Shown: in pieces, positions 8,710 to 54,532 of the stretch
Numbering within the stretch: the first letter of the stretch is position 1
How the letters are laid out: the number at the start of each line of letters is the position of its first letter
Notes under the pieces: generated by a model
Databases searched by the model: none
Told to the model about the DNA's origin: nothing
What the model saw: the letters and a program-made list of their open reading frames with translations, nothing else
Assembly: GCA_964476445.1 (NCBI GenBank)
Contig: CAYZAK010000004.1
Location: 491-64,490 of the forward strand
Reading direction: 5' to 3'
DNA from: an uncultured bacterium
GTDB taxonomy: Bacteria; CG03; SLGR01; JAGXOG01
DNA: 64,000 bases
Position numbers and translations under genes: made by a program

Positions 8710-8739
8710 GGCGATCTGTAAAAAAGAGCTGGTAATTAT

Positions 8740-12920: not shown

Positions 12921-12997
12921 GGGCCGCTAGCTCAACCCGGCAGAGCAACGGACTCTTAATCCGTAGGTTCGGGGTTCGATTCCCCGGCGGCTCACCA
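12921..12997 (+). tRNA. tRNA-Lys (anticodon CTT), CCA encoded
   Basis: GGGCCGC acceptor stem. TAGCTCA D-loop. Anticodon stem ACGGA/TCCGT with loop CTCTTAA. GGTTCGATTCC T-arm. Terminal CTCACCA. Confidence 0.85.
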
Positions 12998-13046
12998 TTT
13001 AAAGTTAAATTAAAAATTTAGTTTAGGATAACGTAATTTTAAAAGT

Positions 13047-13131
13047 GTCGCGGTGGCGGAACTGGCAGACGCGCCAGGTTTAGGACCTGGTTCTTTTAGG
13101 AGTGCGAGTTCAAATCTCGCCCGCGACACCA
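13047..13131 (+). tRNA. tRNA-Leu (anticodon TAG), class II with long variable arm, CCA encoded
   Basis: GTCGCGG/CCGCGAC acceptor. Anticodon stem CCAGG/CCTGG with loop TTTAGGA. Long extra arm. GAGTTCAAATCTC T-arm. ACCA end. Confidence 0.85.
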
Positions 13132-20233: not shown

Positions 20234-20299
20234 CTCAGACGGCAGAGCAACGGCCTTTTAAGCCGTGGGTCGAAGGTTCGATTCCTTCCGGGCTCACCA
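20224..20299 (+). tRNA. tRNA-Lys (anticodon TTT), CCA encoded
   Basis: GGGCCCG acceptor. TAGCTCAGA D-arm. Anticodon stem ACGGC/GCCGT with loop CTTTTAA. GGTTCGATTCC T-arm. CTCACCA end. Its 5' end overlaps the last 10 nt of serA. Confidence 0.85.
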
Positions 20300-28967: not shown

Positions 28968-29339
28968 TTGCCTGAAAAGATACTGGTGATAGAAGACGAT
29001 CCTGGAATTCGCGCATTATGCGGAAAAATTTTAACGAAAGTTGGTTTCAAAGTAAATACCGCTGCAGATTTTAAACGGGGTATAGATCTACTTTCCAGGG
29101 AAAACTGGGCTGTTGTTATAATCGACATCCAGCTTACCGACGGTTCAGGCATGGATATCTTAAAAAAATGTGTAAAAACCCACCCAGGTAGTGTTCCAGT
29201 TATGCTTTCCGGGGCAACCTCCGTTAAGGAAGCGGTAACAGCAATTAAAATAGGTGCAAAAGATTTTATCACCAAACCTTTCAATATAAGTAAGTTGCGC
29301 GATTCTGTCACAGAAGCGGTATCTCAAAACTCTTCTTAA
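28968..29339 (+). CDS. Orphan single-domain response regulator (CheY-like receiver)
   Basis: Acidic pocket IEDD. Phospho-acceptor D in VVIIDIQLTDGSGMD. Conserved K (KPF). TTG start. Confidence 0.75.
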   Translation: MPEKILVIEDDPGIRALCGKILTKVGFKVNTAADFKRGIDLLSRENWAVVIIDIQLTDGSGMDILKKCVKTHPGSVPVMLSGATSVKEAVTAIKIGAKDFITKPFNISKLRDSVTEAVSQNSS

Positions 29340-29453
29340 CCTGCCTTTTTTTTAAAAATAAAAAGTGAATTACAGATAGTATTTGAATTTGATTAATCCC
29401 TGGGTATATATTATAATTAGGATAATTAGAATAATAGTAATAAAGGGATTAAA

Positions 29454-32126
29454 TTGAAAAACCAAAAAATACTAATAAAATTTGTAAAGGTACTTCTTAC
29501 AGCATTAATATTGCTGGGGCTTTATGTTATGGCGGAAGTTAATTACTTACTGTTTCATTCTCTTGTCGAAATATTCAGTGTGGTTGTGGCTTGTACATTA
29601 TTTATTATTGTCTATAATTCTAAAGTTGATAAAGAGCAGAACGCGTATCTCATTTTACTGGGTGTCGCCTACCTATTTGTGGGTTTAACCGATCTTGTCC
29701 ATGTACTTGCCTATTCGGGAATGGGGATTTTTCAGGAGGGAGGGGGAAATTTAGCCACCCAACTTTGGATCGCCGGCCGGTATCTGGAAGTATTTTCTCT
29801 TCTGGGGGCATTTATTGTTTATAAGAAAAAAGTAATATGCAAAAATGCCAATTATCTTTTAGGGTTTTATTCTTTTATATTTACGCTTTTAATGCTCTCA
29901 ATATTTTGGTGGAATATATTTCCGGTCTGTTTTGTCGAAGGTGCCGGTCTTACCCGGTTTAAGGTTATAAGTGAATACTTTATCGTAGGCCTGCTTTTAA
30001 TATTGATTGCTCTAGTTTATAAAAACAGAAAAATTTTTATTAAAGGAAATGATAAGCTAATTTTAAAAATAGTGGTATTTACAATGCTCGCAGAACTGGC
30101 TTTTACTTTTTATGTGGGAGTCTATGATATTTCAAACTTTATAGGTCATATATTTAAATTAATATCTTTTTACTATGTCTATAAATTTATTGTTAAAAAT
30201 CTAATAAAAGAGCCCCAGGAAGTACTGTATGAAAAACTCAGCGAAAAAGAACGAAAGTACAGAGAATTATCTGAAGAATTCGAACTTATATTAGACCATA
30301 TTCCCGATATTATATATTACAAGGATAACCACAATAGTTTTCTAAAGGTAAATAAAAGTCTTGCCAAAGCCCACGGGATGACAAAAGAAGAATTAGAAGG
30401 GAAAAGCCTTTTTGACTTATACCCTGAAGATGAAGCTCGGGAGTATTGGGAGGATGACATGGAGGTTTTGGAGACAAAAAAACCGAAATTGAATATAATT
30501 GAACCCTGGTCTCCGGATGAAAACCGCTGTGTTAAGACCAGTAAGATACCCTATATAGTTAACGGAGAAGTAAGGGGAATAGTGGGGATTTCGACCGATA
30601 TTACAAAGCAGAAAAAAAAAGAACAGCAAATTAAAAATGAACGCAAAAAATTTAAAAAGATATTCCACAGTTCCAATGACGCAATGTATATACACAACTT
30701 AACGAAAGAGGGTATGCCCGGTAGGTTTGTGGAAGTTAACAGTACTGCCTGTAAAATGTTGGGCTATACCCGGGAAGAACTTTTAGATATGTCTCCAAAA
30801 GAGATTGATGCCGGAGAAAAGAGCAAAAAAATGGCTGCAATTATGGAAAAGCTGGTAAGAGCCGGGTCTATGAAATTCGAAATGACTCACCAATCTAAGG
30901 ACGGGAAATGTATTCCCGTGGAAATACATTCCCACATTTTTAAACTGGATGGAAAAGATAGGGTACTATCTGTGGCCCGCGATATATCAGACAGGCTGAA
31001 AAAAGAGAAAAAACTGGTAAAACTTAACGAATATTTAACCAAAATTTTTGACAACACCAATATGTGGATAAATGTTCTGGATAAAGAAGGGAATGTCCTT
31101 ATATGGAACCGGGCAGCCGAAGAAATCTCCGGTTACTCCGCGGAGGAGGCTAAAGGAAATAATAAAATATGGAAATTACTCTACCCTGAAAAAGCATACT
31201 GGAAGAAGGTATTTCAAAAAGTTAAAAATATAATTCAAAACGACGAAACCGTAGAGGGTTATGAAACGATAATTACCGATAAGGCCGGCAATAAGAAATA
31301 TATTCAATGTACATATAACTCTTTAAAAGATAAAGACGGTCAAATAATAGGTTCTGTGGCTATAGGCCGGAATGTTACAAATATTAAAAAAATGAGAGCA
31401 AGAGAGAAAGAACTGCAAAAAGAAATTGCTGAAAGGGAAAAGATGTATCATCTAGGTCAGATGTCCGCCGGGGTGGCCCACGAGATAAATAATCCTCTGA
31501 CCAACATACTTACAACCGCCCAGTTGCTTTTAGAAGAAGATATAAATGCGCAATACCGCGATGATATAGAAATTATAAGAAAAAATACCGAAAGAATAGC
31601 AGCCACCGTAAAAGGATTTCTGGGATTTACAAAAGATCGGGATTTTAAGTTCAGGGCCGTGGATGTAAATAAACTGCTTGATAAAACTATTAAGTTGGTA
31701 GATAAAGATCGAAGGGATGATATTGAAATTTTGAAAAAATATGACAGAAATATGTCCAATATCAAAACCAGCAGTTTTCACTTAGAAGAAGTATTTGTCA
31801 ACCTGATTAAAAATGCATTAGAAAGTATGGAGAGTTCTCCTGAAAAAGTGTTGACTTTAAAAACAGAGGTGGAAGGGAAATATGTACGAATTTCCATAAA
31901 AGATACGGGGGAGGGGATAAAACAAGAGAATTTCAAAAAGTTATTTGAGCCATATTTTACCACAAAAGGTAAAAAAGGAACCGGGCTAGGGCTGCCCACC
32001 TGCAAATATATTCTGAAAAAACTCGACGGGAAAATTAATGTAAAAAGTGAAGGAAAGGGTAATGGTATCGAATTTATACTGATATTGCCATTAGCAAAAA
32101 AAGAAAAAGGAGGTAAAAGTATATAA
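29454..32126 (+). CDS. Membrane sensor histidine kinase: polytopic MASE3-like N-terminal domain, three PAS/PAC domains, HisKA and HATPase_c
   Basis: About 260 aa of hydrophobic helices (LFHSLVEIFSVVVACTLFII is reminiscent of the MASE3 signature). Three PAS cores. H-box GQMSAGVAHEINNPLT. N, G1 (DTGEGI) and G2 (GTGLGL) boxes. TTG start. Confidence 0.85.
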   Translation: MKNQKILIKFVKVLLTALILLGLYVMAEVNYLLFHSLVEIFSVVVACTLFIIVYNSKVDKEQNAYLILLGVAYLFVGLTDLVHVLAYSGMGIFQEGGGNLATQLWIAGRYLEVFSLLGAFIVYKKKVICKNANYLLGFYSFIFTLLMLSIFWWNIFPVCFVEGAGLTRFKVISEYFIVGLLLILIALVYKNRKIFIKGNDKLILKIVVFTMLAELAFTFYVGVYDISNFIGHIFKLISFYYVYKFIVKNLIKEPQEVLYEKLSEKERKYRELSEEFELILDHIPDIIYYKDNHNSFLKVNKSLAKAHGMTKEELEGKSLFDLYPEDEAREYWEDDMEVLETKKPKLNIIEPWSPDENRCVKTSKIPYIVNGEVRGIVGISTDITKQKKKEQQIKNERKKFKKIFHSSNDAMYIHNLTKEGMPGRFVEVNSTACKMLGYTREELLDMSPKEIDAGEKSKKMAAIMEKLVRAGSMKFEMTHQSKDGKCIPVEIHSHIFKLDGKDRVLSVARDISDRLKKEKKLVKLNEYLTKIFDNTNMWINVLDKEGNVLIWNRAAEEISGYSAEEAKGNNKIWKLLYPEKAYWKKVFQKVKNIIQNDETVEGYETIITDKAGNKKYIQCTYNSLKDKDGQIIGSVAIGRNVTNIKKMRAREKELQKEIAEREKMYHLGQMSAGVAHEINNPLTNILTTAQLLLEEDINAQYRDDIEIIRKNTERIAATVKGFLGFTKDRDFKFRAVDVNKLLDKTIKLVDKDRRDDIEILKKYDRNMSNIKTSSFHLEEVFVNLIKNALESMESSPEKVLTLKTEVEGKYVRISIKDTGEGIKQENFKKLFEPYFTTKGKKGTGLGLPTCKYILKKLDGKINVKSEGKGNGIEFILILPLAKKEKGGKSI
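31799..31867 (+). repeat. 69-nt segment about 93% identical to 34637-34705 (HATPase_c N-box region of two paralogous histidine kinases)
   Basis: Direct reading: caacctgattaaaaatgcattagaaagtatggaga is identical in both copies, with about 5 mismatches over 69 nt. The flanking coding DNA is much more diverged. Confidence 0.6.
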
Positions 32127-32184
32127 TTAAGAGTTTTCATTATTAAGTTCATAACAGTGCTCTTTTTTATATAACAGTAAATAT

Positions 32185-32457
32185 ATGATACAAGATTTTA
32201 AATTTAAAGTTTATTATATGGGCAATAAAGTTGCTATTGAAGACGAAGTAGAGGAGTTTAAAAATAAATTCAAGGAAAAATTTGATGAATTTCCGGAAGT
32301 TGAACTTATTTCTATTTCCAAAAATACAGAAAGCGCTGAATCTAATAATATACTGGTAACTCCAACTATTTTGAGGATTTCACCGGAACCAAAGATGAAA
32401 ATTGTAGGAGATTTTCCTCAGAAAGAAGAAACATGGAATAAAATTATAAAGGAGTAA
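32185..32457 (+). CDS. kaiB: KaiB-family protein (thioredoxin-like circadian/hourglass component)
   Basis: 90 aa. ILVTPTILRISPEPKMKIVGDF aligns with the KaiB core ILATPTLVKxLPPPVRRIIGDL. Immediately upstream of kaiC. Confidence 0.8.
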   Translation: MIQDFKFKVYYMGNKVAIEDEVEEFKNKFKEKFDEFPEVELISISKNTESAESNNILVTPTILRISPEPKMKIVGDFPQKEETWNKIIKE

Positions 32458-32461
32458 TAAA

Positions 32462-33907
32462 ATGACTGAAGCAGTAAAAAAGTTAAAGACAGGGATAGAA
32501 GGGTTGGATAATATGCTTAAAGGCGGTATTCCCCAAAACCGGATGGTGGTAGTTTCCGGTGCCGCGGGTACTGGAAAATCGGTTATGTTAAATAATTTTT
32601 TGTATACGGGAATCCGGGACTTTTCACAGAACGGCGTGCTGGTAACGTTTGAAGAATCGCCGAGAGATATAAAAAAGAATGTGAAAGGGTTTGGCTGGGA
32701 TTACGACAAGTTAGAAGAAGAAAATAAGTTGTTTATTGTAGATATGACTCCGGCAATTTCAGGTAAAGTAATGGTTATAAAAGAAGATTTTGACATGGAC
32801 CCTATAATTGAAAGAGTGCTGTACGCGGTGAACAAAGTCGGGGCCAAAAGAGTGGCATTAGACGGTATAGATTCACTTTTTTCCAGGTTTAAGAATAAAA
32901 AAATAATAAGAAATACGATATACAGGCTGAGCACAGCCCTAAAGGAAAAGGGTATAACCGGCTTTATAGCCATGGAATCTTTAACATCTTCTCCCGGAAG
33001 TACCCGATACGGCGTAGAAGAGTTTGTCACCGACGGGGCTGTTGGACTGAAAATGATAGAAGGAGAGCTGGAATTTGTACGGAAACTTTTTATAAGGAAA
33101 CTCAGAGGGTGCAGTTTTCGCAGCGGGATAGTTGAGTATGAAATAAACAGCCAGGGAATGAGAGTTTTTTCCAGACTAAATAAAAAAGATTTAGATGTTA
33201 AGACGGATTTTAAAAATAGATTAAAAACGGGAATGGAAGGAGTTGATTCGGCATTGACCGGAGGGATACCCCGGGGACATAGCGTACTGTTGTCCGGAAA
33301 TTCGGGTACGGGTAAGACTCTTTTTGGGATTAAATTCTTAATTGAAGGTATAGAACAAGGAGATAAATCCGTAATGGTGGCTCTGGAAGAATCTAAAACA
33401 CAGATTAAAAAGACATCCTTAGAACACGGCTGGGATCTGGATAAAATGGAAAAAAACGGCCAAATTTCGTTTATAACAGCCAATCTCCTAGACACCCAAA
33501 TTAATAAGCTGTTGAACGATATTAAAGATGAAATCAAAAAGACGGGGGCCACCAGACTTGTAATAGATTCTATATCCAGTCTGGAATCCGCGTCTATGCA
33601 GGGTAATAAAGTGAGACAATTTATGATTCAGTTAAATAATTTTTTAAAAAATCAGGGAACTACTACCATATTGAATTATTTATCTTCAGCTAATTTCGGG
33701 GCTGCGGGCAACCATCTGCTTTCCGCTTTAAAGACAAATACTTTACGATTGAGTTCCATAACCGACGGTATATTAATTATGCTTTATGTTGAGGGCAAGA
33801 AAGAAGTTGGGCGAGTCTTTAATGTACTTAAAATGAGAGGAATACAACACGATAAAAGTATAATTAAGTATGAGATAATAAAAGGTGGGGTAAAACTTAA
33901 AAAGTAA
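32462..33907 (+). CDS. kaiC: KaiC-family double-RecA ATPase/autokinase (481 aa, lacks a KaiA-binding C-terminal tail)
   Basis: CI domain has Walker A SGAAGTGKS and catalytic glutamates VLVTFEESPRDIKKNVKGFGWDY (compare KaiC VFVTFEETPQDIIKNARSFGWDL). CII domain has Walker A SGNSGTGKT and VMVALEESKTQI. The phosphosite region LSSITDGILIM corresponds to the KaiC ...HISTITDTIILL (S431/T432) loop. Confidence 0.88.
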   Translation: MTEAVKKLKTGIEGLDNMLKGGIPQNRMVVVSGAAGTGKSVMLNNFLYTGIRDFSQNGVLVTFEESPRDIKKNVKGFGWDYDKLEEENKLFIVDMTPAISGKVMVIKEDFDMDPIIERVLYAVNKVGAKRVALDGIDSLFSRFKNKKIIRNTIYRLSTALKEKGITGFIAMESLTSSPGSTRYGVEEFVTDGAVGLKMIEGELEFVRKLFIRKLRGCSFRSGIVEYEINSQGMRVFSRLNKKDLDVKTDFKNRLKTGMEGVDSALTGGIPRGHSVLLSGNSGTGKTLFGIKFLIEGIEQGDKSVMVALEESKTQIKKTSLEHGWDLDKMEKNGQISFITANLLDTQINKLLNDIKDEIKKTGATRLVIDSISSLESASMQGNKVRQFMIQLNNFLKNQGTTTILNYLSSANFGAAGNHLLSALKTNTLRLSSITDGILIMLYVEGKKEVGRVFNVLKMRGIQHDKSIIKYEIIKGGVKLKK

Positions 33908-33911
33908 TTTC

Positions 33912-34940
33912 ATGAATTCTAAAAATCAGTTAGATGAGAACATGAATTTTAGAAAAATGGTTGAGAACAGTCTCGACGGTCTGGTGGTGGTAGATGATTA
34001 TGGGACTATTATTTACGGCAACCGGGCGGCAAAGAAGATTTTCGGAAGAAAAAATATCAATGGAACAGATTTTGGAATACCCTGTAAAGAAAATGAGATG
34101 AGTGAAGTTCAGATACCCGGTTATAAAGATTCGGGGTTTAAATACGCGGAAATAAAAACCGCCCGGGTCAGTTTGGAGATCGGGCCGGTATATGTTGTTA
34201 ATATAAGGGATATAACCCGGAGAAAAAAAGCGGAAAGGAATTACAGAAAATACCGTAAATTATTTGAAAAGAACGAAAAAAAAGTTTTAATGGGCAAAAT
34301 GGCCGGGGGTATGGCTCATGAAATAAATAATCCTCTTACCTCCATTATGGCGATAGTTCAGTTGCTGTTAGAAAAATGCAATGATCGAAAAAACAGGGAG
34401 GATTTAAAGGTTCTGGAGAAAAATGCAAATAGAATTTCCAATACGGTCAAAAGCTTCCTGAGTTTTTCAAAAGACCGGGACTATGTGTATAAAAAAGTTA
34501 AACTGGGCAAAATAATAGATAAAAGCCTAAGTTTTTTAGATAGAAAAAGAAAAGCAAAAGTTAAGATAAATAAAAAATACGGTAAAAATATACCGGAGGT
34601 GAAAACCAGCCGGTTTCATTTAGAAGAGGTGCTGACCAACCTGATTAAAAATGCATTAGAAAGTATGGAGAATTCTCCCAAAAAAGTTTTGACTTTAAAA
34701 ACAGAAGAAAAAGAAGGGCAGATTGTTATTTATGTAAAGGATACTGGCCGGGGCATAGAAAAAGAAAATTTTGAGAAAATATTTGAACCCTACTGCACTA
34801 CTAAAGGCAAAAAAGGTACGGGTCTGGGACTGCCCACGTGTAAGGATATAATGAAAAATCTCGGAGGATATATTGAGTTAAAAAGTAAGGGTGAGGGTAA
34901 AGGAGCGGAGTTTATAGTTAAGTTACCCAATAACATCTAA
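33912..34940 (+). CDS. Soluble PAS-HisKA-HATPase_c histidine kinase, paralogous to the kinase core of the 890-aa kinase
   Basis: One PAS domain. H-box GGMAHEINNPLTSI. HATPase_c about 75% identical at protein level to residues about 770-890 of the upstream kinase, including a 69-nt near-identical DNA stretch. Confidence 0.85.
   Translation: MNSKNQLDENMNFRKMVENSLDGLVVVDDYGTIIYGNRAAKKIFGRKNINGTDFGIPCKENEMSEVQIPGYKDSGFKYAEIKTARVSLEIGPVYVVNIRDITRRKKAERNYRKYRKLFEKNEKKVLMGKMAGGMAHEINNPLTSIMAIVQLLLEKCNDRKNREDLKVLEKNANRISNTVKSFLSFSKDRDYVYKKVKLGKIIDKSLSFLDRKRKAKVKINKKYGKNIPEVKTSRFHLEEVLTNLIKNALESMENSPKKVLTLKTEEKEGQIVIYVKDTGRGIEKENFEKIFEPYCTTKGKKGTGLGLPTCKDIMKNLGGYIELKSKGEGKGAEFIVKLPNNI
34637..34705 (+). 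repeat. Second copy of the 69-nt near-identical segment (see 31799-31867)
   Basis: As above. Lies in the HATPase_c of the 342-aa kinase downstream of kaiC. Confidence 0.6.
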
Positions 34941-34987
34941 ATGATATTATTTATTGAAAGGAAAAGGTTAAAAATAAGGAGAATATA

Positions 34988-36577
34988 ATGGAAGGTAAAC
35001 AAGATAAACGGGTTCTTGTGGTTGATGATGAAGAAAATATAAGAAATATAAGCAAGAGAATACTTTCAAAAAAGAGGCTTATGGTAAAAACCGCCCGTTC
35101 CGCCGAAGTGGGGTGGGAATTAATAAAGAAAGAAGAAGATTTTAATGCAATTCTTTTAGATATTGATTTACCGGGCATGAGCGGAATTGATTTCCTAAAA
35201 AAAATGAAAGGTAAAAATATCAGTGCCGAAGTTGTCATGGTTTCGGGTAAGGGTACAATTGAAGATGCGGTAGAGGCCATGAAGCTGGGGGCTTATGATT
35301 ATATAACAAAACCTTTTGATATAAATAAACTACGGACCGTGGTAAAAAAAGCTGTTGAGAAACAAGCTCTTTCCCGGGAACTGGATATATTGCAAGCGGT
35401 TAACAGTATAATTGAGAAGATCAGCCGTCTTAAACCTGTTGAGGAAATAATGGAAAGTATTATTGACTTTTTAATGGAGGCAACCGGAGCTGACGGCGGC
35501 TCTATAGGAATTTGGGATGATAGTAAAGAACTTATAGTAATAGAAGTGGCTAAAGGAGCGGGAGCGGATGAGAGTATAGGTAAAAAAATTAAAAAAGGGG
35601 AAAGACTCTGTGGGTGGGTGGCCGAACATAGAGCGCCGGTTTTTTTAAATAATTCTCCAAATATGGATAAAAGATTTAAAAATATTTACCCAAGAAAAGA
35701 AATATCATCGGGAATAAGCGTTCCTATTGTTAATAGAGATGAGTTTATGGGTGTATTAAATATTAAAAAAATTAATTCCAAAAAAAAATTTACCCGGAAA
35801 GATTTTGAGGTGTCTTCCCTCATAGCAACCCAGGCAGCTTTTGCGGTTAAGAACGCCGCTGATTATGAAAAACTTTTAGATCTGGATAAACTTAAAGACG
35901 AGTTTATTGCCAATGTCTCCCATGAACTCAGAACTCCACTTCAATCTATAATGGTGAGTTGTGAAATAATAGAACAGGAGTTGCCTGAAGATCAGATGGT
36001 TAAAGTGTGTCTTAGGAATTCTAAAAGAATGCATAAACTTATATCTCAGTTATTGGATTTTTCCCGGTGGGAATCGGTGGGTATTTCACTCAATAAGGAA
36101 AAAATAAACTTAAAACAGCTTTGCCGGGAAGTTGAGGAAGATATTGGTCACAAGATAAAACAAAATAATATAAAAGTATCCCATAAATTTAAAAAGAAAG
36201 ATGAAGTATACGGTGATCATGAGGCCCTAAAAAGGGTAATGATAAATCTGCTGGATAATTCTATAAAATACAGTAATAAAGGCAGTAAAGTTAAAGTATT
36301 TGGAAAGAAAAAAAGATATAGTGTTGAAATTTCTGTTGAAGACAACGGAAAAGGTATACCCGCAAATGAAAAGGAAAATATTTTCAACCGGTTTCATCAG
36401 CAGGAACCGGGGAAGCTGATGACTGCAAAACACAAGGGTCTGGGCCTGGGTTTGTCTATGGTAAAAAAAATAGTTGAGGCTCACGGCGGTAAAGTGGGAG
36501 TTGATAGTGTTTCTGGTAAGGGAAGCCGGTTTTATTTTACCATACCCCGTTTTAAAGAGGGAAAACATGAAAAATAA
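34988..36577 (+). CDS. Hybrid REC-GAF-HisKA-HATPase_c histidine kinase
   Basis: N-terminal receiver (VLVVDDEE...LLDIDLPGMSG...KPF). GAF-like middle domain. H-box SHELRTPL. G-boxes DNGKGI and GLGLGL. Confidence 0.85.
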   Translation: MEGKQDKRVLVVDDEENIRNISKRILSKKRLMVKTARSAEVGWELIKKEEDFNAILLDIDLPGMSGIDFLKKMKGKNISAEVVMVSGKGTIEDAVEAMKLGAYDYITKPFDINKLRTVVKKAVEKQALSRELDILQAVNSIIEKISRLKPVEEIMESIIDFLMEATGADGGSIGIWDDSKELIVIEVAKGAGADESIGKKIKKGERLCGWVAEHRAPVFLNNSPNMDKRFKNIYPRKEISSGISVPIVNRDEFMGVLNIKKINSKKKFTRKDFEVSSLIATQAAFAVKNAADYEKLLDLDKLKDEFIANVSHELRTPLQSIMVSCEIIEQELPEDQMVKVCLRNSKRMHKLISQLLDFSRWESVGISLNKEKINLKQLCREVEEDIGHKIKQNNIKVSHKFKKKDEVYGDHEALKRVMINLLDNSIKYSNKGSKVKVFGKKKRYSVEISVEDNGKGIPANEKENIFNRFHQQEPGKLMTAKHKGLGLGLSMVKKIVEAHGGKVGVDSVSGKGSRFYFTIPRFKEGKHEK

Positions 36578-37136
36578 AAAGATATATACTACTAAAGAAG
36601 CATCTGAACTTCTAAACGCGGACATAACTACTATTTCTAACTGGATAGACGAAGGCAAATTAAAAGCCTACCGGACACCCGGAGGGCACCGGAGAGTGCA
36701 GCAGAAGGCATTGTTGAGTTTTGTGAAAAAGTATGAAATGCCGATCTTTGACCGGCAAACTACAACTACAAATTTTCTTATAGTGGACGATGAGCCTAAA
36801 ATCCAGAAAACGGTTAAAAAAATCTTATCTAAAAAATATCCGGAGGCACGTATATTTAAATCCGATAACGGTTTTAAGTCGGGAAAATATCTGGCCCGGG
36901 GAGATATAGATTGCGTTATTCTGGATATTAGAATGCCGGGGATGGACGGTTTTGAAGTTATGGAGCAGATTAAAACCGACCCCGATCTGGGTTCACCGGC
37001 TGTCATAGTAATAACCGGATACTCCGAGGAAGGTCTGAAAGAAGAAGTAAAGGACAAAGGAGCCCAAAAACTTCTTTACAAACCGTTCGATATTAAAGAG
37101 CTAAGGAATGCCGTGGCCGAGGTATTAAATGAGTAA
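36567..37136 (+). CDS. Atypical response regulator: N-terminal excisionase/MerR-type HTH (HTH_17-like) followed by a C-terminal receiver
   Basis: YTTKEASELLNADITTISNWIDEGKLKAYRTPGGHRRV is the Xis/MerR-type HTH. The receiver follows (LIVDDEP...ILDIRMPGMDG...KPF). ATG at 36567 overlaps the upstream stop by 11 nt. The track ORF extends to 36474. Confidence 0.7.
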   Translation: MKNKKIYTTKEASELLNADITTISNWIDEGKLKAYRTPGGHRRVQQKALLSFVKKYEMPIFDRQTTTTNFLIVDDEPKIQKTVKKILSKKYPEARIFKSDNGFKSGKYLARGDIDCVILDIRMPGMDGFEVMEQIKTDPDLGSPAVIVITGYSEEGLKEEVKDKGAQKLLYKPFDIKELRNAVAEVLNE

Positions 37137-40100
37137 AAGAAGGGTAAAATTTTTTTTGTGCTTTGCTTTATTTATTCTTCAACTGAATATTAAGTTATTT
37201 GGAATTACAGTTGAAAATGAATCGGGAGAAAATTTTAGCGGTGAATTGGGTTATTTAATGGTTACCTCAACAGGAGTAACTCTGGCTAATAAATTTGAAC
37301 AGTTAACCCCCGAACAGTCACCCGAGCCCAGGTACTGGCATGCCATGTGGACCGATAATATAGTTGAAAAAATATATCTTTTCGGGGGTCGGGGGGTTGT
37401 TGTTGATGGGGGCAGCCTGGGGGATACTCAATATTTCAGTGAAAATACATGGAACATACAGGAAGGAACCGGGCCTTCAAAAAGATCCAATATGGCGATT
37501 ACCGACTGCGGCCTACTATTTGGAGGTGTACATAGTGACACATTGTATGACGATACCTGGCGATTTAATGATGGTAATTGGAAAAAAATAGATGTTTCCA
37601 CTCACCCTTCCGCCCGGTTTGGGCATACCCTGAATATGACCGAAAAAGGCATGGTTCTTTTTGGTGGCAGTGAAGGAGCCGGGGAGACCTGGATTTTAGA
37701 TACTCAAGTTGATGAGTGGACTGAGGTTACGCCGGCAAATTCACCGCCCGGCCGGGAGAGACATGTATCCTGGGTTACTGAAACCGGGGAAGTTATTATT
37801 TTCGGAGGCCGGAACGGAGATGATTTTTTTGGTGATACCTGGAAGTATGATCCGGTAAGTGAGGAGTGGGAAAATCTGGAAATTGAAGGCCCTTCCGAAA
37901 GAGAGTTCGGTACAGTATTTTTCGATAAAGATACCCAGGCAGCGGTATTGTTTGGCGGCGGAAAAGGACCTTCAGCTATATATTTAAATGATTTATGGAT
38001 TTTTCACGACGGTAAATGGCATCAGAGTTATCCTTATTTACCCGGTGAAGCGCCGGAGGAAAGAACCAGCGCCGCCGCTTCGTACTATCCGTCGGAAAAA
38101 TGGGGTATGTTTTTCGGGGGCTATCAGGATTTAAAGAATTCTGAAGAAAAATATTTCGGGGATACCTGGAAACTCGAGCTTTCCACCGGCGGTGTTTATG
38201 TATCCCCTGTTTTTGATACCGGCGAAATTAATACCAGGCTGTACTATGAAAGGTTGGATTGGTCCGTAAAGGGGGCCTCCGGCAGCGTTAAATTTCAGGT
38301 CGCCTCTTCTTCGATAAATCAACCGGCTCCGGATAATTTCACCGGCCCTGACGGTTCTACGGAAAGCTATTACACCGCGCCCGGCGAGGTTGATTCCTAC
38401 CATTACAATAACCGGTATTTCAGGTACCGTTTTTTTATGGAAAATGATAAACCAGGGGTTGTTGACCCGGTCAGTGTGGTATCCGCTTCGGTGACATATA
38501 ATCATGCTCCCACTACCCCTACATTGAATTCCCATGAATCCTCGGCTGAAGACGGGGGAGTATCCGGAGCGGCAACTAAATTTGCATGGAACCATGCCGA
38601 TGATAGTGACGGAGATGAGATTAAATATAATCTACAGGTGGCTTATACACAAAATTTCAGTGATTTTATAATAAACGAAACTAATATTGAAGAGCACGAT
38701 CATTCGCCGACAGGCATTGAGAGAGAAATGGAGCACGGAGGTCCCTACTACTGGCGGGTCAGGGCTAATGACGGTTCGGTCTACGGGAATTTTTCTTCAA
38801 CCTGGTCCATTTATATAGATACGGTCCCCCCGGCGGCTGTAACTACCCTTACCGCTCAAAGAGATGATTATAAAAGCGGCGCGGTTGAGCTGGAGTGGAC
38901 CGTACCCGACGAACGGGAACTTACCCGGATTAGATGGACACATTTATATGAAATTGATAGTGAAAGCAGATGGGGTAATTCTGATGAAAAAGAATATACT
39001 TCTACCGTACCCACAGGTTCAACGGACAGTTATGTGGTCACCGGTCTTAACGATGCTACCACCTACTGGTTCTCGGTCCGGCTGGAAGACGAAGCTGGAA
39101 ACCTGAGCGATTTTTTTTCCAGCCCGGCCTGTAAGACCAATTCTCCTCCTGAAATAACTCTTACTCAGGATCTTGACGGAGAGTGGGGAACGGCTTCGGA
39201 TAAGGGAACCTCAACAATAGTGTTTTCCTGGGATATATACGATCCGGACCCCGAGGACACCCATGAAGTGGATATATGGATGGCCGAAGATATAGATCGG
39301 GATTTCGATATCCGGGTGGCTACCGGTATAATCGGCAGCGCCGGGGAATATAGCTGGGATTCCCGGCACGTAAGAAACGCCCCTTCCTACCGGGCCCGTT
39401 TCATGGTCAAAGACCAGCGGGGGCTTTCGGGATATATCATAAGTCCGGGTACGATGAATATAACTAACTACAATGAACCCCCGGAAATAACCTTGATTAC
39501 TCCTTCCGGCGGAGAGGAGTGGAACGATATTAATTATATAGACTGGGACTGGTACGATCCCAATCGCACGGATACGGTATATTTTGAAATTTTAGTGTCC
39601 ACCGATGCCGGCCAAAATTTTACCTATGTAGAGGAGTATGTCCGGCCATCGGAGATACCCTACCGTTGGGGCACGGGAAACGTCCCCGACAGTGATGAGT
39701 CTGTAGTAAAAGTTATAGGCATAGATAATCACGGTGCCGAAGGCAAAGATATATCCGGGGAATTTTCCATAAAAAATGATTCTCTGCCTCCCAAACCTTT
39801 TGATTTAATATCTCCGGAATATGGTTCTTTTTCGTATTCCACCCAGGTTGTATTTTCGTGGGAGGAGACCGCCGACGCCGACGGCGGGGAGATTACCTAT
39901 ACCTTATGTATTTCTGAAAATCCTGATTTTGTACCACATAATCTTTACGAAGATTTAACCGGGACTCAGAAAGAACTTGCCCTTGAAGATGAGACTATTT
40001 ACTACTGGAAGGTTCTGGCCAAGGACGAAAAACTGGTGGATACAGAGAGCTCATCCTGGGGTAAATTCGCCGTTAATATAAATCCCCCCCAAATTCTTTC

Positions 40101-41208
40101 TTCCTGGCCGGAAGACGGGGATATGCTTATTATGACCGGCACGGAGACGGTAAGGTTCGAACTTAACAAAAATTATGACGATCGAAATCCCAAAACTATT
40201 TCCGTTCACGAGCATATTAGCATATATGATGAATACGGTAATTATATCAGCGCAATGTACTATGATCTTTCATTGGATACTCATACCCATATTTTAAAAA
40301 TCACCCCTGATGCAGAACATAGAAAATTTATGCCTTCCCGGAAGTATACAGTAAAAATTGGTAAAAAAATTACCGATTCTGTGGGGCATACTTTTTTAGG
40401 AGACCGGAAAATAGAATTTGTCCGGCTTCTGGAGGATAAAGATACCGCCGGCCTTGAAATTACAGAGCTTGCCTCTCTAGAAATCCCCTCCGGTTTTATA
40501 GGGGAAAGCAGCTATGTTCGATTGACCAGGAGGGATCAGACCGAAGAGACCCGCCGGGCCGACAGAATGGTTGCTACTAATCCGCTGGTCAGTATTGAAA
40601 CATTGGATATGGTTGAACTTAGGGCGTTTGATTCTTCGGGAGAAAGAGTAGATGATTTTATTAAAAATCCTGATTTAACTATGTACTACACTGAAGAAAA
40701 GGGACTGGCCGGTGGTAAAAATATTGATGAGAGATTTCTTAAAATTTTCAGGTTGAATTCTGACGGTACGGTCAGTGGAAGTTTCTCCGGCGGGTCCAGT
40801 TCCGGATGGGAGTATGTAGGCGGGGAGAACGACTATACTCAAAATAAAGTTACGGTAAGTCCGTCCCGGTCGGGATTATATTCTTTAAAAGCCTATTCCG
40901 AGCCGGTAAAGGAGGTTTCAGAGGTAATTGCTTACCCCAATCCGTTCAATCCTTTTGAAGATGAGTTAAACATTAAATTTATTATTACTAAGAATATGAG
41001 TCTGGAACTGGAATTTTACACTCTGACCGGGGATCTGGTTTACAGACATGAAAAAGAATTTCAGGGAGATTCGGCAGGAACCCAGGTAAGTTTTACCTGG
41101 GATGGAAGAAATAATGAACATACTCTTGTAGGTAATGGAATGTACTACGGGCGTATTAAAAACAAGGGTGAGGAGAAGGAAAGTTTTTTAATAGGAGTAG
41201 TTAAATAG
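37129..41208 (+). CDS. Large secreted protein: signal peptide, six-bladed Kelch/galactose-oxidase-like beta-propeller, FN3/Ig-like repeats, and T9SS (Por) C-terminal sorting domain
   Basis: N-terminal hydrophobic signal. Six LFGG-type Kelch blades (YLFGGRG, LLFGGVH, VLFGGSEG, IIFGGRNG, VLFGGGKG, MFFGGYQD). Tandem beta-sandwich repeats with W-rich FN3-like cores. The C-terminus is AYPNPFNPFEDEL...GMYYGRIKN...VVK, typical of a type-A T9SS C-terminal domain. Confidence 0.7.
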   Translation: MSKRRVKFFLCFALFILQLNIKLFGITVENESGENFSGELGYLMVTSTGVTLANKFEQLTPEQSPEPRYWHAMWTDNIVEKIYLFGGRGVVVDGGSLGDTQYFSENTWNIQEGTGPSKRSNMAITDCGLLFGGVHSDTLYDDTWRFNDGNWKKIDVSTHPSARFGHTLNMTEKGMVLFGGSEGAGETWILDTQVDEWTEVTPANSPPGRERHVSWVTETGEVIIFGGRNGDDFFGDTWKYDPVSEEWENLEIEGPSEREFGTVFFDKDTQAAVLFGGGKGPSAIYLNDLWIFHDGKWHQSYPYLPGEAPEERTSAAASYYPSEKWGMFFGGYQDLKNSEEKYFGDTWKLELSTGGVYVSPVFDTGEINTRLYYERLDWSVKGASGSVKFQVASSSINQPAPDNFTGPDGSTESYYTAPGEVDSYHYNNRYFRYRFFMENDKPGVVDPVSVVSASVTYNHAPTTPTLNSHESSAEDGGVSGAATKFAWNHADDSDGDEIKYNLQVAYTQNFSDFIINETNIEEHDHSPTGIEREMEHGGPYYWRVRANDGSVYGNFSSTWSIYIDTVPPAAVTTLTAQRDDYKSGAVELEWTVPDERELTRIRWTHLYEIDSESRWGNSDEKEYTSTVPTGSTDSYVVTGLNDATTYWFSVRLEDEAGNLSDFFSSPACKTNSPPEITLTQDLDGEWGTASDKGTSTIVFSWDIYDPDPEDTHEVDIWMAEDIDRDFDIRVATGIIGSAGEYSWDSRHVRNAPSYRARFMVKDQRGLSGYIISPGTMNITNYNEPPEITLITPSGGEEWNDINYIDWDWYDPNRTDTVYFEILVSTDAGQNFTYVEEYVRPSEIPYRWGTGNVPDSDESVVKVIGIDNHGAEGKDISGEFSIKNDSLPPKPFDLISPEYGSFSYSTQVVFSWEETADADGGEITYTLCISENPDFVPHNLYEDLTGTQKELALEDETIYYWKVLAKDEKLVDTESSSWGKFAVNINPPQILSSWPEDGDMLIMTGTETVRFELNKNYDDRNPKTISVHEHISIYDEYGNYISAMYYDLSLDTHTHILKITPDAEHRKFMPSRKYTVKIGKKITDSVGHTFLGDRKIEFVRLLEDKDTAGLEITELASLEIPSGFIGESSYVRLTRRDQTEETRRADRMVATNPLVSIETLDMVELRAFDSSGERVDDFIKNPDLTMYYTEEKGLAGGKNIDERFLKIFRLNSDGTVSGSFSGGSSSGWEYVGGENDYTQNKVTVSPSRSGLYSLKAYSEPVKEVSEVIAYPNPFNPFEDELNIKFIITKNMSLELEFYTLTGDLVYRHEKEFQGDSAGTQVSFTWDGRNNEHTLVGNGMYYGRIKNKGEEKESFLIGVVK

Positions 41209-41233
41209 TTAAATTAAAAGGAGTTATATTAAA

Positions 41234-41608
41234 ATGATGGAAGAAAAAAAGAGAGTATTAATTGCCGAAGATGACGAGGATGTAATACTGGTACTGAAAG
41301 AAGGTTTAAAAGGATATGAATTTATAACTGCCAAAGATGGGAAGGAGGCTTATAAGAAGATAAAATCAGAACATCCGGATTTAATCATTTTGGATGTTAT
41401 GATGCCTGAAATTAATGGAGCCGATTTAAATAAAAGGTTGAAAAGAGAAGATGAAGTTAAGGATATTCCGGTTTTAATAATTACCGGCCGCCCGAATCTC
41501 CGGGGCCTTTTTTCAGATTCGGGGGTCAATAAAGTCTCCGGATTTTTGGAAAAACCTTTTAGTCTAAAAATACTTAAGGAGGAATTAGAAAAAATTATTA
41601 ATAAATGA
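41234..41608 (+). CDS. Orphan single-domain response regulator (CheY-like receiver)
   Basis: VLIAEDDED, LIILDVMMPEINGAD and KPF motifs. 124 aa. Confidence 0.75.
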   Translation: MMEEKKRVLIAEDDEDVILVLKEGLKGYEFITAKDGKEAYKKIKSEHPDLIILDVMMPEINGADLNKRLKREDEVKDIPVLIITGRPNLRGLFSDSGVNKVSGFLEKPFSLKILKEELEKIINK

Positions 41609-43107
41609 GAAAGAGTTTTTTTACATACTGTATAATAATGATTGTAGTAACTCCTGCCGGTGCTTTTTATGCTCCTTCCGGTGGAACCGGGGGAGTGCCG
41701 GGAGAGTATCTCTCTTATTTTTCTGCCTCGGCCAGGGCGCTGGGTATGGGGGAGGCCCATACTTCAATTTCAGACAGCGCGTCGTCTATTTACTATAATC
41801 CGGCAAATATTGGTGGTTTGGGCAATCATACCGTAGACACTCTTTACACGACTTTGTTGGGAGGAGGCAATTACGCGTCTCTATTTTACTCGGGTGCGCT
41901 GGGTATGGATTATACGGTGGGAGCCGGGGTGGTATCCTTAAATTCCGGTGAAGGGGTAAAGAGAAACCGATGGGGAGCTGACGAAGGTAAGTTTAGAGAT
42001 TACAGAACTGCAATTTACCTTGCTCTGGCAAAAAATTTTGAACCTAAATTTAAGCTGGGTTTAAATTTAAAAATCTTAAATCAGCAGATAGATACTTATG
42101 AAGATTCGGGGTTGGGTTTGGACGGAGGTTTAAAATTAAGGGCAACTGATAGAATTGATGTAGGCTTAAATATCCAAAATATACTTTCTCCCGCCTTAAA
42201 GCTAATAAATGAAGAGGAAAGATACCCCCTCAATATAAAAATGGGAGTTAGCCGCAGTTTTTTTCTGGACCGGCGGTTGACTGTTACAGGCGATTTAGGT
42301 TTACTTGACCCCGGCGGTCAGAGAACTTTAAGATGGCATACCGGATTAGAATATAAAATTTTTGACCTTATCTATTTGAGGGGAGGATTGAACTATAAAA
42401 ATATTACCGGCGGACTGGGATTAAAAACGGATAAATTTGGATTTTCCTATGCGGTTAGATATTCTGACCCCGGTCTTTTCCATACGGTGAGTACATCCTA
42501 TATGTTTGGCATGCTTCCATCCAAGAAGGAAAAACAGCTAGCCCGTAAAGAAGAACTGCTGGATGAACGGGAGCAAAGATTTAAAGAGTGGAGAAAAGAA
42601 CAGGAGAGAGCTCTCAGGGAAAGGTTGGGACGTACCCAGGAGGAATTAGAAGAACAGATGGAAGAAGCCAGGTCCAAAAATGAGGAGCTGGAAGCTTTAA
42701 TACAGGCGGCTATAGATATTAGACGTGGGGATTATGCCCGTGCCGAGGAGAGTCTCAGGGGAATTTTAGAGCGGGATCCCCATCAGGAAGATGCTGGTAA
42801 ACTGCTGGAAATTATCGAGAAAGAACTGGCTAAAGAGTTTTCGTTTAATCGGATGATGGGCGCCTATAACGAGGGAAACTATGAAGTAGCTTTAAACGAA
42901 TCCCGTAAAGCAAAAAGGGATAATACCCAGTTTGAGCAGATTCAGATTATAGGTCTTTTGTCATCGGCCCGGGTAAATATACTGTCTGAAAATTTTGAGC
43001 GGGCCAAAAGTGAGTTGCGTAAAGTGATGGATATACGTCCAGATAGCGAGACGGCCCGTTCTCTTCTCAGGAGAGCTGAAAGATTAGAGGAAATACATGG
43101 ACAGTAA
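41605..43107 (+). CDS. Outer-membrane beta-barrel protein (PorV/FadL-like N-terminal motif) fused to a C-terminal coiled-coil/TPR-like helical domain
   Basis: Signal peptide. Conserved ARALGMGEAHT...IYYNPANIG motif, of the GMGGA...NPAG type seen in PorV/FadL/UPF0164 barrels. Alternating beta-strand pattern over about 300 aa, then about 190 aa rich in E/R/K/L heptads. Confidence 0.5.
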   Translation: MRKSFFTYCIIMIVVTPAGAFYAPSGGTGGVPGEYLSYFSASARALGMGEAHTSISDSASSIYYNPANIGGLGNHTVDTLYTTLLGGGNYASLFYSGALGMDYTVGAGVVSLNSGEGVKRNRWGADEGKFRDYRTAIYLALAKNFEPKFKLGLNLKILNQQIDTYEDSGLGLDGGLKLRATDRIDVGLNIQNILSPALKLINEEERYPLNIKMGVSRSFFLDRRLTVTGDLGLLDPGGQRTLRWHTGLEYKIFDLIYLRGGLNYKNITGGLGLKTDKFGFSYAVRYSDPGLFHTVSTSYMFGMLPSKKEKQLARKEELLDEREQRFKEWRKEQERALRERLGRTQEELEEQMEEARSKNEELEALIQAAIDIRRGDYARAEESLRGILERDPHQEDAGKLLEIIEKELAKEFSFNRMMGAYNEGNYEVALNESRKAKRDNTQFEQIQIIGLLSSARVNILSENFERAKSELRKVMDIRPDSETARSLLRRAERLEEIHGQ

Positions 43108-44338
43108 AAATAAATTAATGAGGCTGGCTTTTTTAGTGGTGTTGTTAGGGTTTAGAAGTTATGTTCCAGTTGTGGCCGTTCAGGATGCCTACCAGCAAGG
43201 AGTAAATTTTTATTTGGACGGAAATATAGAACAGGCCATGACATCTCTCAATGAAGCCTATGAAGAGTCTCCGGAGAATGAGAGGGTAAAAGGGCTGTTA
43301 GCCGAGGTATTAATTTTAAAAGCCGGAGAGTTAAACGAAAGAGAAGAGTATGAAAAAGCGCTTGACCATATTGGAAAAGCTAAAGATTTAAGACCGGACG
43401 ATGATAAGGTCAATAGAGTTTATAATATGTTGCATTCAAAAGTCCATCCGGATGAGTATTTAAAAGAAAAAGAGATTGAAACTACTGACCCGGAATTTGA
43501 GGAAGAACCTGAACACCGGGATTTACAGGAGATTAAAGAAGAAGAAGAAGAAAAACGGGAAGAAAGGGTCCGGATAATAGAAAAACCTCCGCAAAAACTT
43601 ACCGTAAGAGAAAGGGAGCTTTTAAGACCTATAATTATGACCGGGGAAGACAAGACAGATAGTACAATTTATTATGTAATGGGGGGAACTGTTTTTTCAT
43701 TGATGTTGTTTATGAGTATGGCGGGATTCTGGATAAAAAACCTTACTCAAAGTAACCGGGAGAGTATGGAACAAATCACCCAGGCCTCGTCAGAGAAAGT
43801 GGAACGGATGGAAAAAGAATTAAAAAAGGTCCGCCGTGAAAAACAAAGGATAAATAAAAAAGAAAAAAAGGATTCTCATCGGCAAAAAAAAGACCGTAAA
43901 GTCAGGGAAGAACGACTTAAAAAAGAATACGCTCAGCTTCTTAAAGAGGCAATTCAATCCGATAACGCGCCCCGGGTGATTGAAGAACCCAGAATAGCTG
44001 AAAGTCCGGCCGATAAAGAAGAAGAAAAAGAAGTTAAAAATTCATTTAAAAGATTAAGGAAAACTAAGTACAATGAGGCATTTAAATTATTAAAAAGTAT
44101 GACCGGTAAAGGTAATTCTTGGGTCCGGTTATGGGCCGCCGAGCTTACGCCGGATTTAAAAGTACAGGATCGCCTTAATATTTTAAAAGAACTGGTTACT
44201 GACCCGGAATACCAGGTAAAAAAGAGGGCCCTTAAGGAACTTAAGAATATAACCGATTCCAAAGAGGTTGATAAAGTTTACCGGATAGAAGCTAATAATA
44301 TTTTAAAAGAGGTTAAGACCGACGGTTGGGTAGTGTAA
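43097..44338 (+). CDS. Hypothetical protein: signal/TPR-like N-terminal region, one internal TM helix, K/E/R-rich coiled coil, HEAT/TPR-like C-terminus
   Basis: Coding potential supported by length and overlap-coupled position. No catalytic motif recognised. TM segment IYYVMGGTVFSLMLFMSMAGFWI. Confidence 0.4.
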   Translation: MDSKNKLMRLAFLVVLLGFRSYVPVVAVQDAYQQGVNFYLDGNIEQAMTSLNEAYEESPENERVKGLLAEVLILKAGELNEREEYEKALDHIGKAKDLRPDDDKVNRVYNMLHSKVHPDEYLKEKEIETTDPEFEEEPEHRDLQEIKEEEEEKREERVRIIEKPPQKLTVRERELLRPIIMTGEDKTDSTIYYVMGGTVFSLMLFMSMAGFWIKNLTQSNRESMEQITQASSEKVERMEKELKKVRREKQRINKKEKKDSHRQKKDRKVREERLKKEYAQLLKEAIQSDNAPRVIEEPRIAESPADKEEEKEVKNSFKRLRKTKYNEAFKLLKSMTGKGNSWVRLWAAELTPDLKVQDRLNILKELVTDPEYQVKKRALKELKNITDSKEVDKVYRIEANNILKEVKTDGWVV

Positions 44339-46458: not shown

Positions 46459-46608
46459 GTTAAAGATAATTGTTAAATAAATTTTTTACTGTAAATGTGA
46501 GTAAAGTCACTGAAAATTTAAGTTAAATAAGCTATTATTTGTAATGCTGGCACTAATTAACAGGGAACCAGCGTAGAAAGATGGTAAGTTAACCGGAGGA
46601 TTTTTAAA

Positions 46609-54516: not shown

Positions 54517-54532
54517 ACAGGAGGATAATTTT

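Follow-up and report, generated by a model that had tools for sequence, protein, structure and literature searches.

What a kaiB-kaiC pair might do in a bacterium outside the cyanobacteria, where it lies among genes for sensor kinases and response regulators and has no recognizable kaiA beside it, is the question raised by a locus of an uncultured bacterium (assembly GCA_964476445.1, contig CAYZAK010000004.1, positions 491 to 64,490 of the forward strand). The window, by which we mean this whole stretch of 64 kb, was analyzed by listing its open reading frames (ORFs) and by searching their proteins against Pfam and NCBIfam profiles. At a probability of roughly 90%, we consider the locus to be a kaiBC-kinase signaling module. 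Judging from the sequence and from analogy with studied relatives, we also think it somewhat better than an even chance that the module works without KaiA, as a phospho-switch or an hourglass whose state the adjacent kinase reads, through the mechanism proposed below. KaiA-less KaiBC modules are presumed to have given rise to the cyanobacterial clock, and only a few have been studied, in Rhodobacter, Rhodopseudomonas, Legionella, and Pseudomonas. A KaiA-less kaiBC pair among kinases and regulators is already well known outside the cyanobacteria; what is locally notable here is the tail-less KaiC clade, the divergent KaiB, the presence of a DNA-binding regulator among the clustered genes, and a host from the Elusimicrobiota.

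The product of kaiC (32462..33907, + strand, as are all genes of the cluster; 481 aa) is, from its sequence, a bona fide double-domain KaiC. The profile searches for KaiB and KaiC that the earlier note on this DNA had proposed as a check found two PF06745 stretches in it (384 bits) and PF07689 in the 90-aa product of kaiB (32185..32457; 37.1 bits with a cut-off of 27). Among solved structures, KaiC is closest to cyanobacterial and reconstructed ancestral KaiCs (E 2e-89 to 1e-83), with an alignment that spans residues 4-480, and the R. sphaeroides KaiC structure is a weaker match (211 bits). In the alignment with Synechococcus elongatus KaiC, whose sequence was confirmed to be identical to that of 1U9I and which is ~35% identical to the window protein, the catalytic residues K39, E64/E65 (FEES), and R215 of CI and K285, E309/E310, and R459 of CII each fall on their counterparts. 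The Walker A boxes are GAAGTGKS at 33-40 and GNSGTGKT at 279-286, and the phospho-acceptor pair S431/S432 in RLSSITD (the SS-I-T loop) provides the predicted phosphosites. Its last residue aligns with S. elongatus position 481, with 2 residues following position 480, and the protein has neither the A-loop (487-497), nor the KaiA-binding segment (S. elongatus 487-519), nor a coiled coil. The earlier note was therefore right in reading both Walker A boxes, FEES, and the SS-I-T loop from this protein and in denying it a C-terminal extension for KaiA docking. It had also pointed out that its interpretation would fail if the ORF grouped with RadA or archaeal KaiC-like recombinases, and such a protein, or an ATPase with no signaling role, could be suggested by matches to the RadA, RecA, DnaB, and FlaH models. 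These matches are, however, weak and all below threshold. The RadA model gives 57.9 bits against a cut-off of 403, compared with 391.9 bits for the KaiC model, both KaiC domains are full, the protein retains the phosphosite loop and the B-loop region, its gene has kaiB and a kinase gene as neighbors, and the protein groups with double-domain KaiCs. The recombinase interpretation was rejected, being effectively refuted by the profile scores, the solved relatives, and the tree.

That tree was constructed by neighbor joining (NJ) with bootstrap from KaiCs of 80 further loci, collected by a metagenome scan with a KaiC alignment, and from database homologs; the references in it are S. elongatus KaiC, R. 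sphaeroides KaiC (plasmid pRSKD131A), and classes defined by synteny, with no KaiC3 reference. The sampled KaiCs fall cleanly into two classes, and the split has a bootstrap value of 100/100. Members of the class that includes the window KaiC have an RLSS phosphosite, 2-13 residues after position 480, a called length of 481-517 aa, and 41-50% identity to the window protein. Those of the other class have the HIST phosphosite as in S. elongatus, 19-62 residues after position 480 in complete genes, a length of ~490-540 aa, and 30-37% identity. In 47 of the 60 NJ replicates, R. sphaeroides KaiC, which is 32% identical to the window KaiC, is sister to the RLSS class. By published criteria a two-serine phosphosite is KaiC2-like (PMC5520375, PMC10076222); the window protein departs from the coiled-coil KaiC2 type because it has no ~50-aa coiled coil and keeps the Walker-B arginine, R365. 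A separate scan of genome contigs with the single KaiC protein returned only a relative with 82% identity (locus L001) and distant archaeal single-domain KaiC-like genes.

The surroundings of these genes were surveyed with domain models built from the window's own proteins, which are single-seed and insensitive, on all fetched loci. KaiB adjoins KaiC in most of the sampled loci. All 11 evaluable loci of the RLSS class have an ORF with a PAS domain immediately beside kaiBC, and a kinase core was detected in 8 of them. Together, kaiB, kaiC, and a PAS kinase gene make up the conserved core. Published work likewise describes KaiC homologs as having a kinase beside them in almost all cases, frequently accompanied by receivers (10.1101/2022.01.26.477890).

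No match to KaiA (PF07688) was found in the ORFs scanned in the window, with three ORFs of at least 150 aa at 57702-59384 lying outside the scan, and the pair is KaiA-less in this sense, as had been claimed. The claim that the cluster has no SasA, CikA, or OmpR-type RpaA was borne out as well: profile searches showed neither a KaiB-like nor a pseudo-receiver domain in any of its three kinases, and its regulator is an HTH_17-REC protein. Since KaiA (in the 64-kb window), the A-loop, and SasA/CikA/RpaA are all lacking, the locus does not, as far as can be judged from sequence, belong to the KaiABC oscillators. It shares with the S. elongatus KaiABC system (1U9I) the double-domain fold, all catalytic residues, the order kaiB before kaiC, and probably output through histidine kinases, but it differs in that KaiA was not found, the A-loop and tail are missing, the phosphosite is SS and not ST, T426 is replaced by N, and a SasA-like KaiB-domain kinase, a CikA-like pseudo-receiver kinase, and an OmpR-type RpaA are not present in the cluster.

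It is very improbable that KaiB and KaiC, alone or with an unrecognized KaiA substitute encoded elsewhere, form a self-sustained circadian oscillator, even though damped ~24 h oscillation occurs without KaiA in Synechococcus (PMC7205874), noncanonical KaiA3 exists outside the cyanobacteria (PMC11372060), and our view is limited to 64 kb of the genome. The window KaiC offers neither A-loop nor tail to a KaiA-type activator, the receiver encoded upstream has no KaiA-like extension, and the ground-state determinants of KaiB, which are the source of the slow step, are missing. In addition, Rnf genes, found at 56443-60185, suggest an anaerobic lifestyle, and nothing in the window suggests phototrophy.

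The comparison with KaiA3 deserves some attention because, in KaiA3-KaiB3-KaiC3 systems, which also occur outside the cyanobacteria, a receiver gene likewise lies upstream of kaiB-kaiC (PMC11372060). KaiA3, however, has ~300 aa, consists of REC and a KaiA-like C-terminus, and is encoded directly upstream of kaiB, whereas the stand-alone REC protein of the window (28968..29339; Pfam Response_reg, 82.9 bits) has 123 aa, and a kinase gene lies between its gene and kaiB; having no C-terminal extension, this REC protein is not KaiA3-like. Its gene starts with TTG, preceded by a GAAAGGGGA ribosome-binding site (RBS), its DD, D, S, and K residues are canonical, and its best NCBIfam matches are NtrX/NtrC-type receivers. 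Loci of KaiA3-like architecture have tailed HIST KaiCs, which are 33-36% identical to the window KaiC. In the sample, a REC protein of ~275-315 aa is encoded directly upstream of kaiB at L004, L038, L041, L048, L053, L057, L061, L064, L065, L068, L081, L086, and L089, all with tailed, HIST-motif KaiCs, and at L057 and L081 there are tandem duplicated REC-kaiB-kaiC units. Pfam recognized REC only in seven of eight such proteins of ~295 aa and gave a weak match to the KaiA C-terminus (19.4 bits) in that of L057; we infer that these proteins are KaiA3-like.

The kinase gene of the conserved core starts 4 nt downstream of kaiC (33912..34940) and encodes a cytoplasmic PAS-HisKA-HATPase_c kinase of 342 aa, as defined by its profile domains, which is from its sequence the candidate reader of the KaiC state. 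Upstream of kaiB lies the gene of a membrane sensor kinase of 890 aa (29454..32126), composed of MASE3 (253.7 bits), three PAS domains, HisKA, and HATPase_c. The cores of these two kinases, both of the HEINNPL type and flanking kaiBC, are 57% identical, which makes them paralogs. The relative L001 has three copies of this kinase family, and an extra PAS-kinase paralog is encoded there (L001 1055-2170) between the ortholog of the MASE3 kinase and kaiB, which suggests that a single kinase family has recently expanded around kaiBC. Behind the PAS kinase gene follows that of a hybrid kinase of 529 aa (34988..36577), in which profile domains define REC, GAF, HisKA, and HATPase_c; its core comes nearest (31-37% identity) to those of kinases from other Kai loci, of which several are REC-PAS kinases encoded directly after kaiC. 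The next gene (36567..37136) encodes a regulator of 189 aa with an N-terminal excisionase/MerR-like HTH_17 domain (43.4 bits; TIGR01764, 44.1 bits) and a REC domain (86.1 bits). All seven genes that the earlier note had listed, from the stand-alone REC to this regulator, were thus recovered with their domains. Farther downstream is a second stand-alone receiver (41234..41608; 124 aa; Response_reg, 73.1 bits). The H-box is AHEINNPL in two of the kinases and SHELRTPL in the third, and the DD, D, S/T, and K residues are canonical in all four receivers.

In the mechanism we propose, KaiC would assemble into a double ring with ATPase and autokinase activity and, with its active site left unburied, would phosphorylate S431/S432 with no need of KaiA, as in the A-loop-deleted KaiC of S. 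elongatus and in R. sphaeroides KaiC (KaiC-RS) deprived of its coiled coil. The latter protein autophosphorylates (5.5 per hour, compared with 7.4 per hour for the wild type) and barely dephosphorylates, and the R. sphaeroides hourglass is driven by the ATP/ADP ratio (PMC10076222). By analogy, the phosphorylation or ATPase state of the window KaiC might follow an external or metabolic cue, such as ATP/ADP, with no autonomous cycling; a state driven in this way would make the system an hourglass, or a switch for stress duration or energy, and not a self-sustained circadian clock. KaiB would bind to the CI ring, and because its inactive ground-state fold has probably been lost in this lineage, it would do so without a fold-switch delay. 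The soluble PAS kinase encoded 4 nt downstream would read the state of KaiC, while the MASE3/PAS membrane paralog might bring environmental input into a related kinase core. The signal would then probably pass to the REC-GAF kinase and on to the HTH_17-REC regulator, which is encoded by an overlapping gene and is likely its cognate partner, for transcriptional output, and the single-domain receivers might act as phosphate sinks or shuttles. These activities, interactions, and wiring steps are proposals built on observed gene content, conservation of domains and residues, clade, synteny, and purifying selection.

The closest model for this mechanism is the KaiBC hourglass of R. sphaeroides (Cereibacter; PMC10076222; L095). 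Both systems have no KaiA and a two-serine phosphosite (GLSSLMD in R. sphaeroides), and both share the triad of kaiC, kaiB, and a histidine kinase gene, in the order kaiB then kaiC in the window; from this likeness, KaiA-independent autophosphorylation would be expected of the window KaiC too. There are differences as well. R. sphaeroides KaiC has 570 aa and a ~50-aa coiled coil, with ~105 residues past position 480, while the 481-aa window protein has neither coiled coil nor A-loop; R365 is V in R. sphaeroides; the neighboring kinase is of the HWE type there and of the HisKA type here; and R. sphaeroides KaiB is canonical and fold-switching, while the window KaiB has no equivalents of G89 and D91.

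The Pseudomonas KaiC modules resemble the window in that a KaiC gene lies beside those of a PAS kinase and single-domain receivers, and there KaiC binds the PAS domain of the neighboring kinase and its phosphorylation tracks culture age or stress, not time of day (10.1101/2022.01.26.477890). Unlike the window, which has KaiB and a DNA-binding-type HTH_17-REC protein, these modules have no KaiB among the conserved neighbors of KaiC, and their regulators are not DNA-binding. As for Legionella pneumophila, as far as its KaiBC is covered in two later papers citing Loza-Correa 2014 (PMC11665890, PMC10808063), it belongs to a nonphototroph, has no KaiA, and was proposed to function in stress response rather than in circadian timing. 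According to the same accounts, Legionella KaiB (4KUN) has ~90 aa, has no Gly89, and was crystallized in a thioredoxin-like, fold-switched form. The window KaiB matches 4KUN with an E value of 2.5e-6. We know of no dense two-component cluster associated with Legionella KaiBC.

Several findings stand against the KaiA-independent hourglass as we have drawn it, and they concern KaiC, KaiB, and the neighboring genes alike. In KaiC, the position of T426, which S. elongatus needs for dephosphorylation, is occupied by N426, with T425 adjacent. KaiC also scores under the NCBI equivalog cut-offs (PRK09302, by a narrow margin, 391.9 versus 408; TIGR02655, 324.4 versus 546), and its sequence marks it as a KaiC homolog and not an equivalog of the cyanobacterial clock protein. 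KaiB is so divergent that its binding to KaiC is not assured, and since an AlphaFold2 model of it, which has a thioredoxin-like order of elements, is unreliable (mean pLDDT 42, from a 2-sequence alignment), what is said here of its fold state derives from its primary structure. Among the neighbors, the gaps of 114 nt (with a promoter-like site), 58 nt (with an AT-rich hairpin), and 47 nt between genes could yield several transcripts. Finally, HTH_17(-REC), GAF, and MASE3 were detected beside kaiBC only in the window and in the 82% relative, with the insensitive single-seed models mentioned above, and the link of these genes to Kai could be mere adjacency, a reservation that extends to the output through the HTH-REC protein suggested in the earlier note.

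The divergence of KaiB is the only feature that stands out at the locus. The window KaiB is 24% identical to the KaiBs of the sister RLSS loci and 26% identical to S. elongatus KaiB, and it is among the two most divergent of the 81 sampled. The KaiBs of the sister loci are canonical, with ~61% identity to each other, 62% to S. elongatus KaiB, and a C-terminal VLLGLDL, and the window KaiC is no outlier (46% to its class versus 53% within the class). KaiB still matches PDB KaiBs with E values down to 5e-9, the Legionella and R. sphaeroides proteins among them, but it is below the NCBIfam equivalog cut-offs (36.4 versus 110 and 35.1 versus 145). A HMMER search with KaiB over 1.84 billion representatives gave one close cluster (66%) and 172 matches at E <= 1e-3, and a separate homolog search returned only the protein itself and one relative with 67% identity. 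The conserved C-terminal VL(I/L)GLDL is replaced by TWNKIIKE, while the TPT and IVGD motifs are kept. The equivalents of G89 and D91 of T. elongatus KaiB are K86 and I88, and the protein stops before the position of Y94. G89A, D91R, and Y94A with truncation at 94 favor the fold-switched, binding-competent KaiB, and Legionella KaiB, which has A89, crystallizes in the fold-switched state (PMC11665890, PMC10808063). From the alignment, the window KaiB has none of these ground-state-stabilizing residues.

A KaiB of this kind might no longer be a regulator of KaiC and might play another role, for example that of a thioredoxin-fold adaptor recruiting a kinase, as the N-terminal domain of SasA does, or that of a binder of some unrelated partner. 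We regard such a change of role as unlikely. It would accord with the low identity to the sister KaiBs next to an unexceptional KaiC, with the small number and weakness of the 172 matches, with the replacement of VLLGLDL, and with a weak match to the SasA N-terminal domain (E 0.09). Nevertheless, the protein passes the Pfam cut-off for KaiB and keeps TPT and IVGD, its gene lies 4 nt upstream of kaiC as at other loci, and it is under purifying selection. The ratio of nonsynonymous to synonymous substitution rates (dN/dS) relative to the ortholog is 0.17 for kaiB, 0.12 for kaiC, and 0.09-0.16 for five other neighbors. Eight genes were compared, and the ratio could be calculated for seven, from kaiB to the receiver gene at 41234, dS not being estimable for the PorV-TPR gene; the values are to be read with synonymous sites near saturation (dS 0.9-3.3). 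The kaiB gene is thus maintained by purifying selection, and the idea that it is degenerating was rejected at a dN/dS of 0.17. A lineage-specific KaiB that has diverged far more than its KaiC and has no ground-state determinants would be a useful natural test of whether the fold switch is needed outside true clocks. Among the proteins retrieved from the 1.84 billion representatives was also one of 2235 aa (P0244) that has 12 repeats resembling residues 46-77 of the window KaiB (E 1e-13) and appears to be a giant protein made of a repeated KaiB-like segment.

The neighboring genes pose the question of how far the module extends. The functional unit might consist of kaiBC and the PAS kinase only, with the REC, the MASE3 kinase, the REC-GAF kinase, the HTH-REC regulator, and the downstream REC as separate neighbors in a gene-dense region read from a single strand. 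We hold this to be doubtful, though less so than the change of role considered for KaiB. All gene-like ORFs of at least 150 aa in the window are on the + strand and tightly packed, so their common direction carries no weight for operon structure; the GC skew is positive in each 2-kb bin, and a single-strand gene run of 64 kb is unusually long. HTH_17, GAF, and MASE3, as already mentioned, were seen at no other sampled Kai locus beyond this lineage, the three wider gaps contain promoter-like or hairpin elements, and the complement of kinase genes upstream of kaiB differs in L001. Against a mere neighborhood speaks that the core of the MASE3 kinase is a 57% paralog of that of the KaiC-adjacent kinase, that the order from kaiB to the receiver gene at 41234 is kept in the 82% relative despite the dS of 0.9-3.3, and that similar two-component islands surround kaiBC in the unrelated L013, L039, L057, and L065. 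In L001, the order is the same from kaiB to the TPR genes, including the position of the Kelch gene and the receiver gene at 41234.

The spacers across the seven genes are 114, 58, 4, 4, and 47 nt, followed by an overlap of 11 nt. The latter value applies to a start of the HTH-REC gene at 36567, where an ATG stands behind an AGAGGGA RBS and gives the 189 aa that are also the length of the ortholog; from the mechanical ORF start at 36474 the overlap would be about 100 nt, and 36567 is most likely the true start. The earlier note had spoken of co-directional genes with spacers of 4-60 nt or overlaps, which is correct as to direction and not as to the range, given the 114 nt between the REC and MASE3 kinase genes. 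Its proposal of a probable single operon agrees with the junctions of 4, 4, -11, and -8 nt, which are consistent with cotranscription, but it draws nothing from co-direction, and the 114-, 58-, and 47-nt gaps may split the unit. The boundary of a seven-gene island did not hold. It is arbitrary because, beyond 37136, the packed string runs on to 44338 with successive junctions of -8, +25, -4, and -11 nt, negative values being overlaps; a gap of 188 nt follows. Nor is the density of signaling genes unusual, as had been thought: in the 24 loci that offer 6 kb or more on either side, the counts of two-component genes over that distance are 8, 8, 5 (the window), 5, and 5, with 2 or fewer in the rest, so that 5 of the 24 have at least 5.

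Possible signals between the genes were also noticed, although in promoter and terminator scans the enrichment over shuffled sequences was too small to define transcripts. A promoter-like site, TTGATT-17-TATAAT, is located at 29389-29417 inside the 114-nt gap. An inverted repeat, TTAATCCC ... GGGATTAA, at 29393-29452 (22-nt arms, 73% complementary, with the outer 8 nt perfect) encloses the promoter-like -10 box together with the RBS of the MASE3 kinase gene; it may serve as an operator or as a hairpin that sequesters the RBS. An AT-rich inverted repeat at 32120-32173 (14-nt arms, 86% complementary, 26 nt between them, and a T-run at the end) spans the stop codon of the same gene and the gap before kaiB and could be a weak terminator or attenuator. 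No obvious RBS precedes kaiB, and kaiC has an AAGGAG RBS 8 nt upstream.

Beyond the regulator, the string continues with a Kelch beta-propeller/Ig-like surface protein of 1359 aa (37129..41208; Kelch family model, 153 bits), whose gene overlaps that of the regulator by 8 nt and may extend the transcription unit. After the second receiver gene come those of a PorV/PorQ-family outer-membrane protein fused to a TPR region (41605..43107; 500 aa; NCBIfam PorV_fam, 102 bits with a cut-off of 90, and TPR matches) and of a TPR/HEAT-repeat protein (43097..44338; 413 aa; profile matches), which is the last of the string. Further signaling genes follow at 44527-48093, encoding a CHASE2-adenylate/guanylate cyclase (643 aa) and a FecR-domain protein.

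This arrangement allows a more speculative version of the KaiA-independent switch. A KaiBC stripped of the known elements for delay and for regulation, down to a KaiC without A-loop, tail, or coil and a KaiB locked in the binding-competent thioredoxin-like fold, might act as a fast, nonoscillating sensor of energy or redox state, with output directly to the HTH_17-REC regulator and the overlapping Kelch/PorV-like locus. We put this forward tentatively, as an idea with the odds clearly against it. If it is true, Kai proteins would have evolved away from timekeeping in a host that is probably anaerobic and nonphototrophic, and the stripped-down pair would be a natural end point of that path. Independently of this, the locus adds an Elusimicrobiota example to the KaiA-less modules and points to a large clade of tail-less two-serine KaiCs, in effect a natural version of the engineered KaiC without its coil, of which no biochemical study was found in the literature examined. 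Current understanding is not overturned, and the locus is of value for comparison and as a candidate for biochemical work.

Assignment of the host to Elusimicrobiota is based on sequence relatives: the nearest KaiC (82%) comes from an Elusimicrobiota metagenome-assembled genome, and among the best MnmG matches with an organism name almost all are from Elusimicrobiota, at identities from 76% to 55% (76%, 60%, 59%, and lower). The genome is thus not FCB-like, contrary to its earlier description. The earlier note had also taken the lineage to bear a type IX secretion system (T9SS), of which no core machinery was seen in the window. PorV/PorQ-family proteins are encoded at 41605 (102 bits) and 54533 (182.8 bits; the cut-off for both is 90), and the Kelch protein matches Por_Secre_tail with only 20.3 bits against a cut-off of 27 and the C-terminal tails of PorU and PorZ weakly. 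Two pairs of a large surface protein and a PorV/PorQ protein are present, at 37129-44338 and 49456-55480, the second consisting of a 1686-aa protein with CarboxypepD_reg and FlgD_ig and the PorV/PorQ protein at 54533; from their sequences they may be T9SS-like pairs of cargo and shuttle in an Elusimicrobiota genome.

Upstream of the cluster lies a histidine-biosynthesis block with thiE, which ends at 28771. The only Rfam matches in the window are three tRNA genes, at 12921-13128 and 20224-20296. Glycosyltransferase, sulfotransferase, aminotransferase, radical-SAM, and WbqC genes occupy 113-12785 and are probably a cluster for surface polysaccharide synthesis; a sulfotransferase gene also precedes kaiC in R. 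sphaeroides, which is probably a coincidence.

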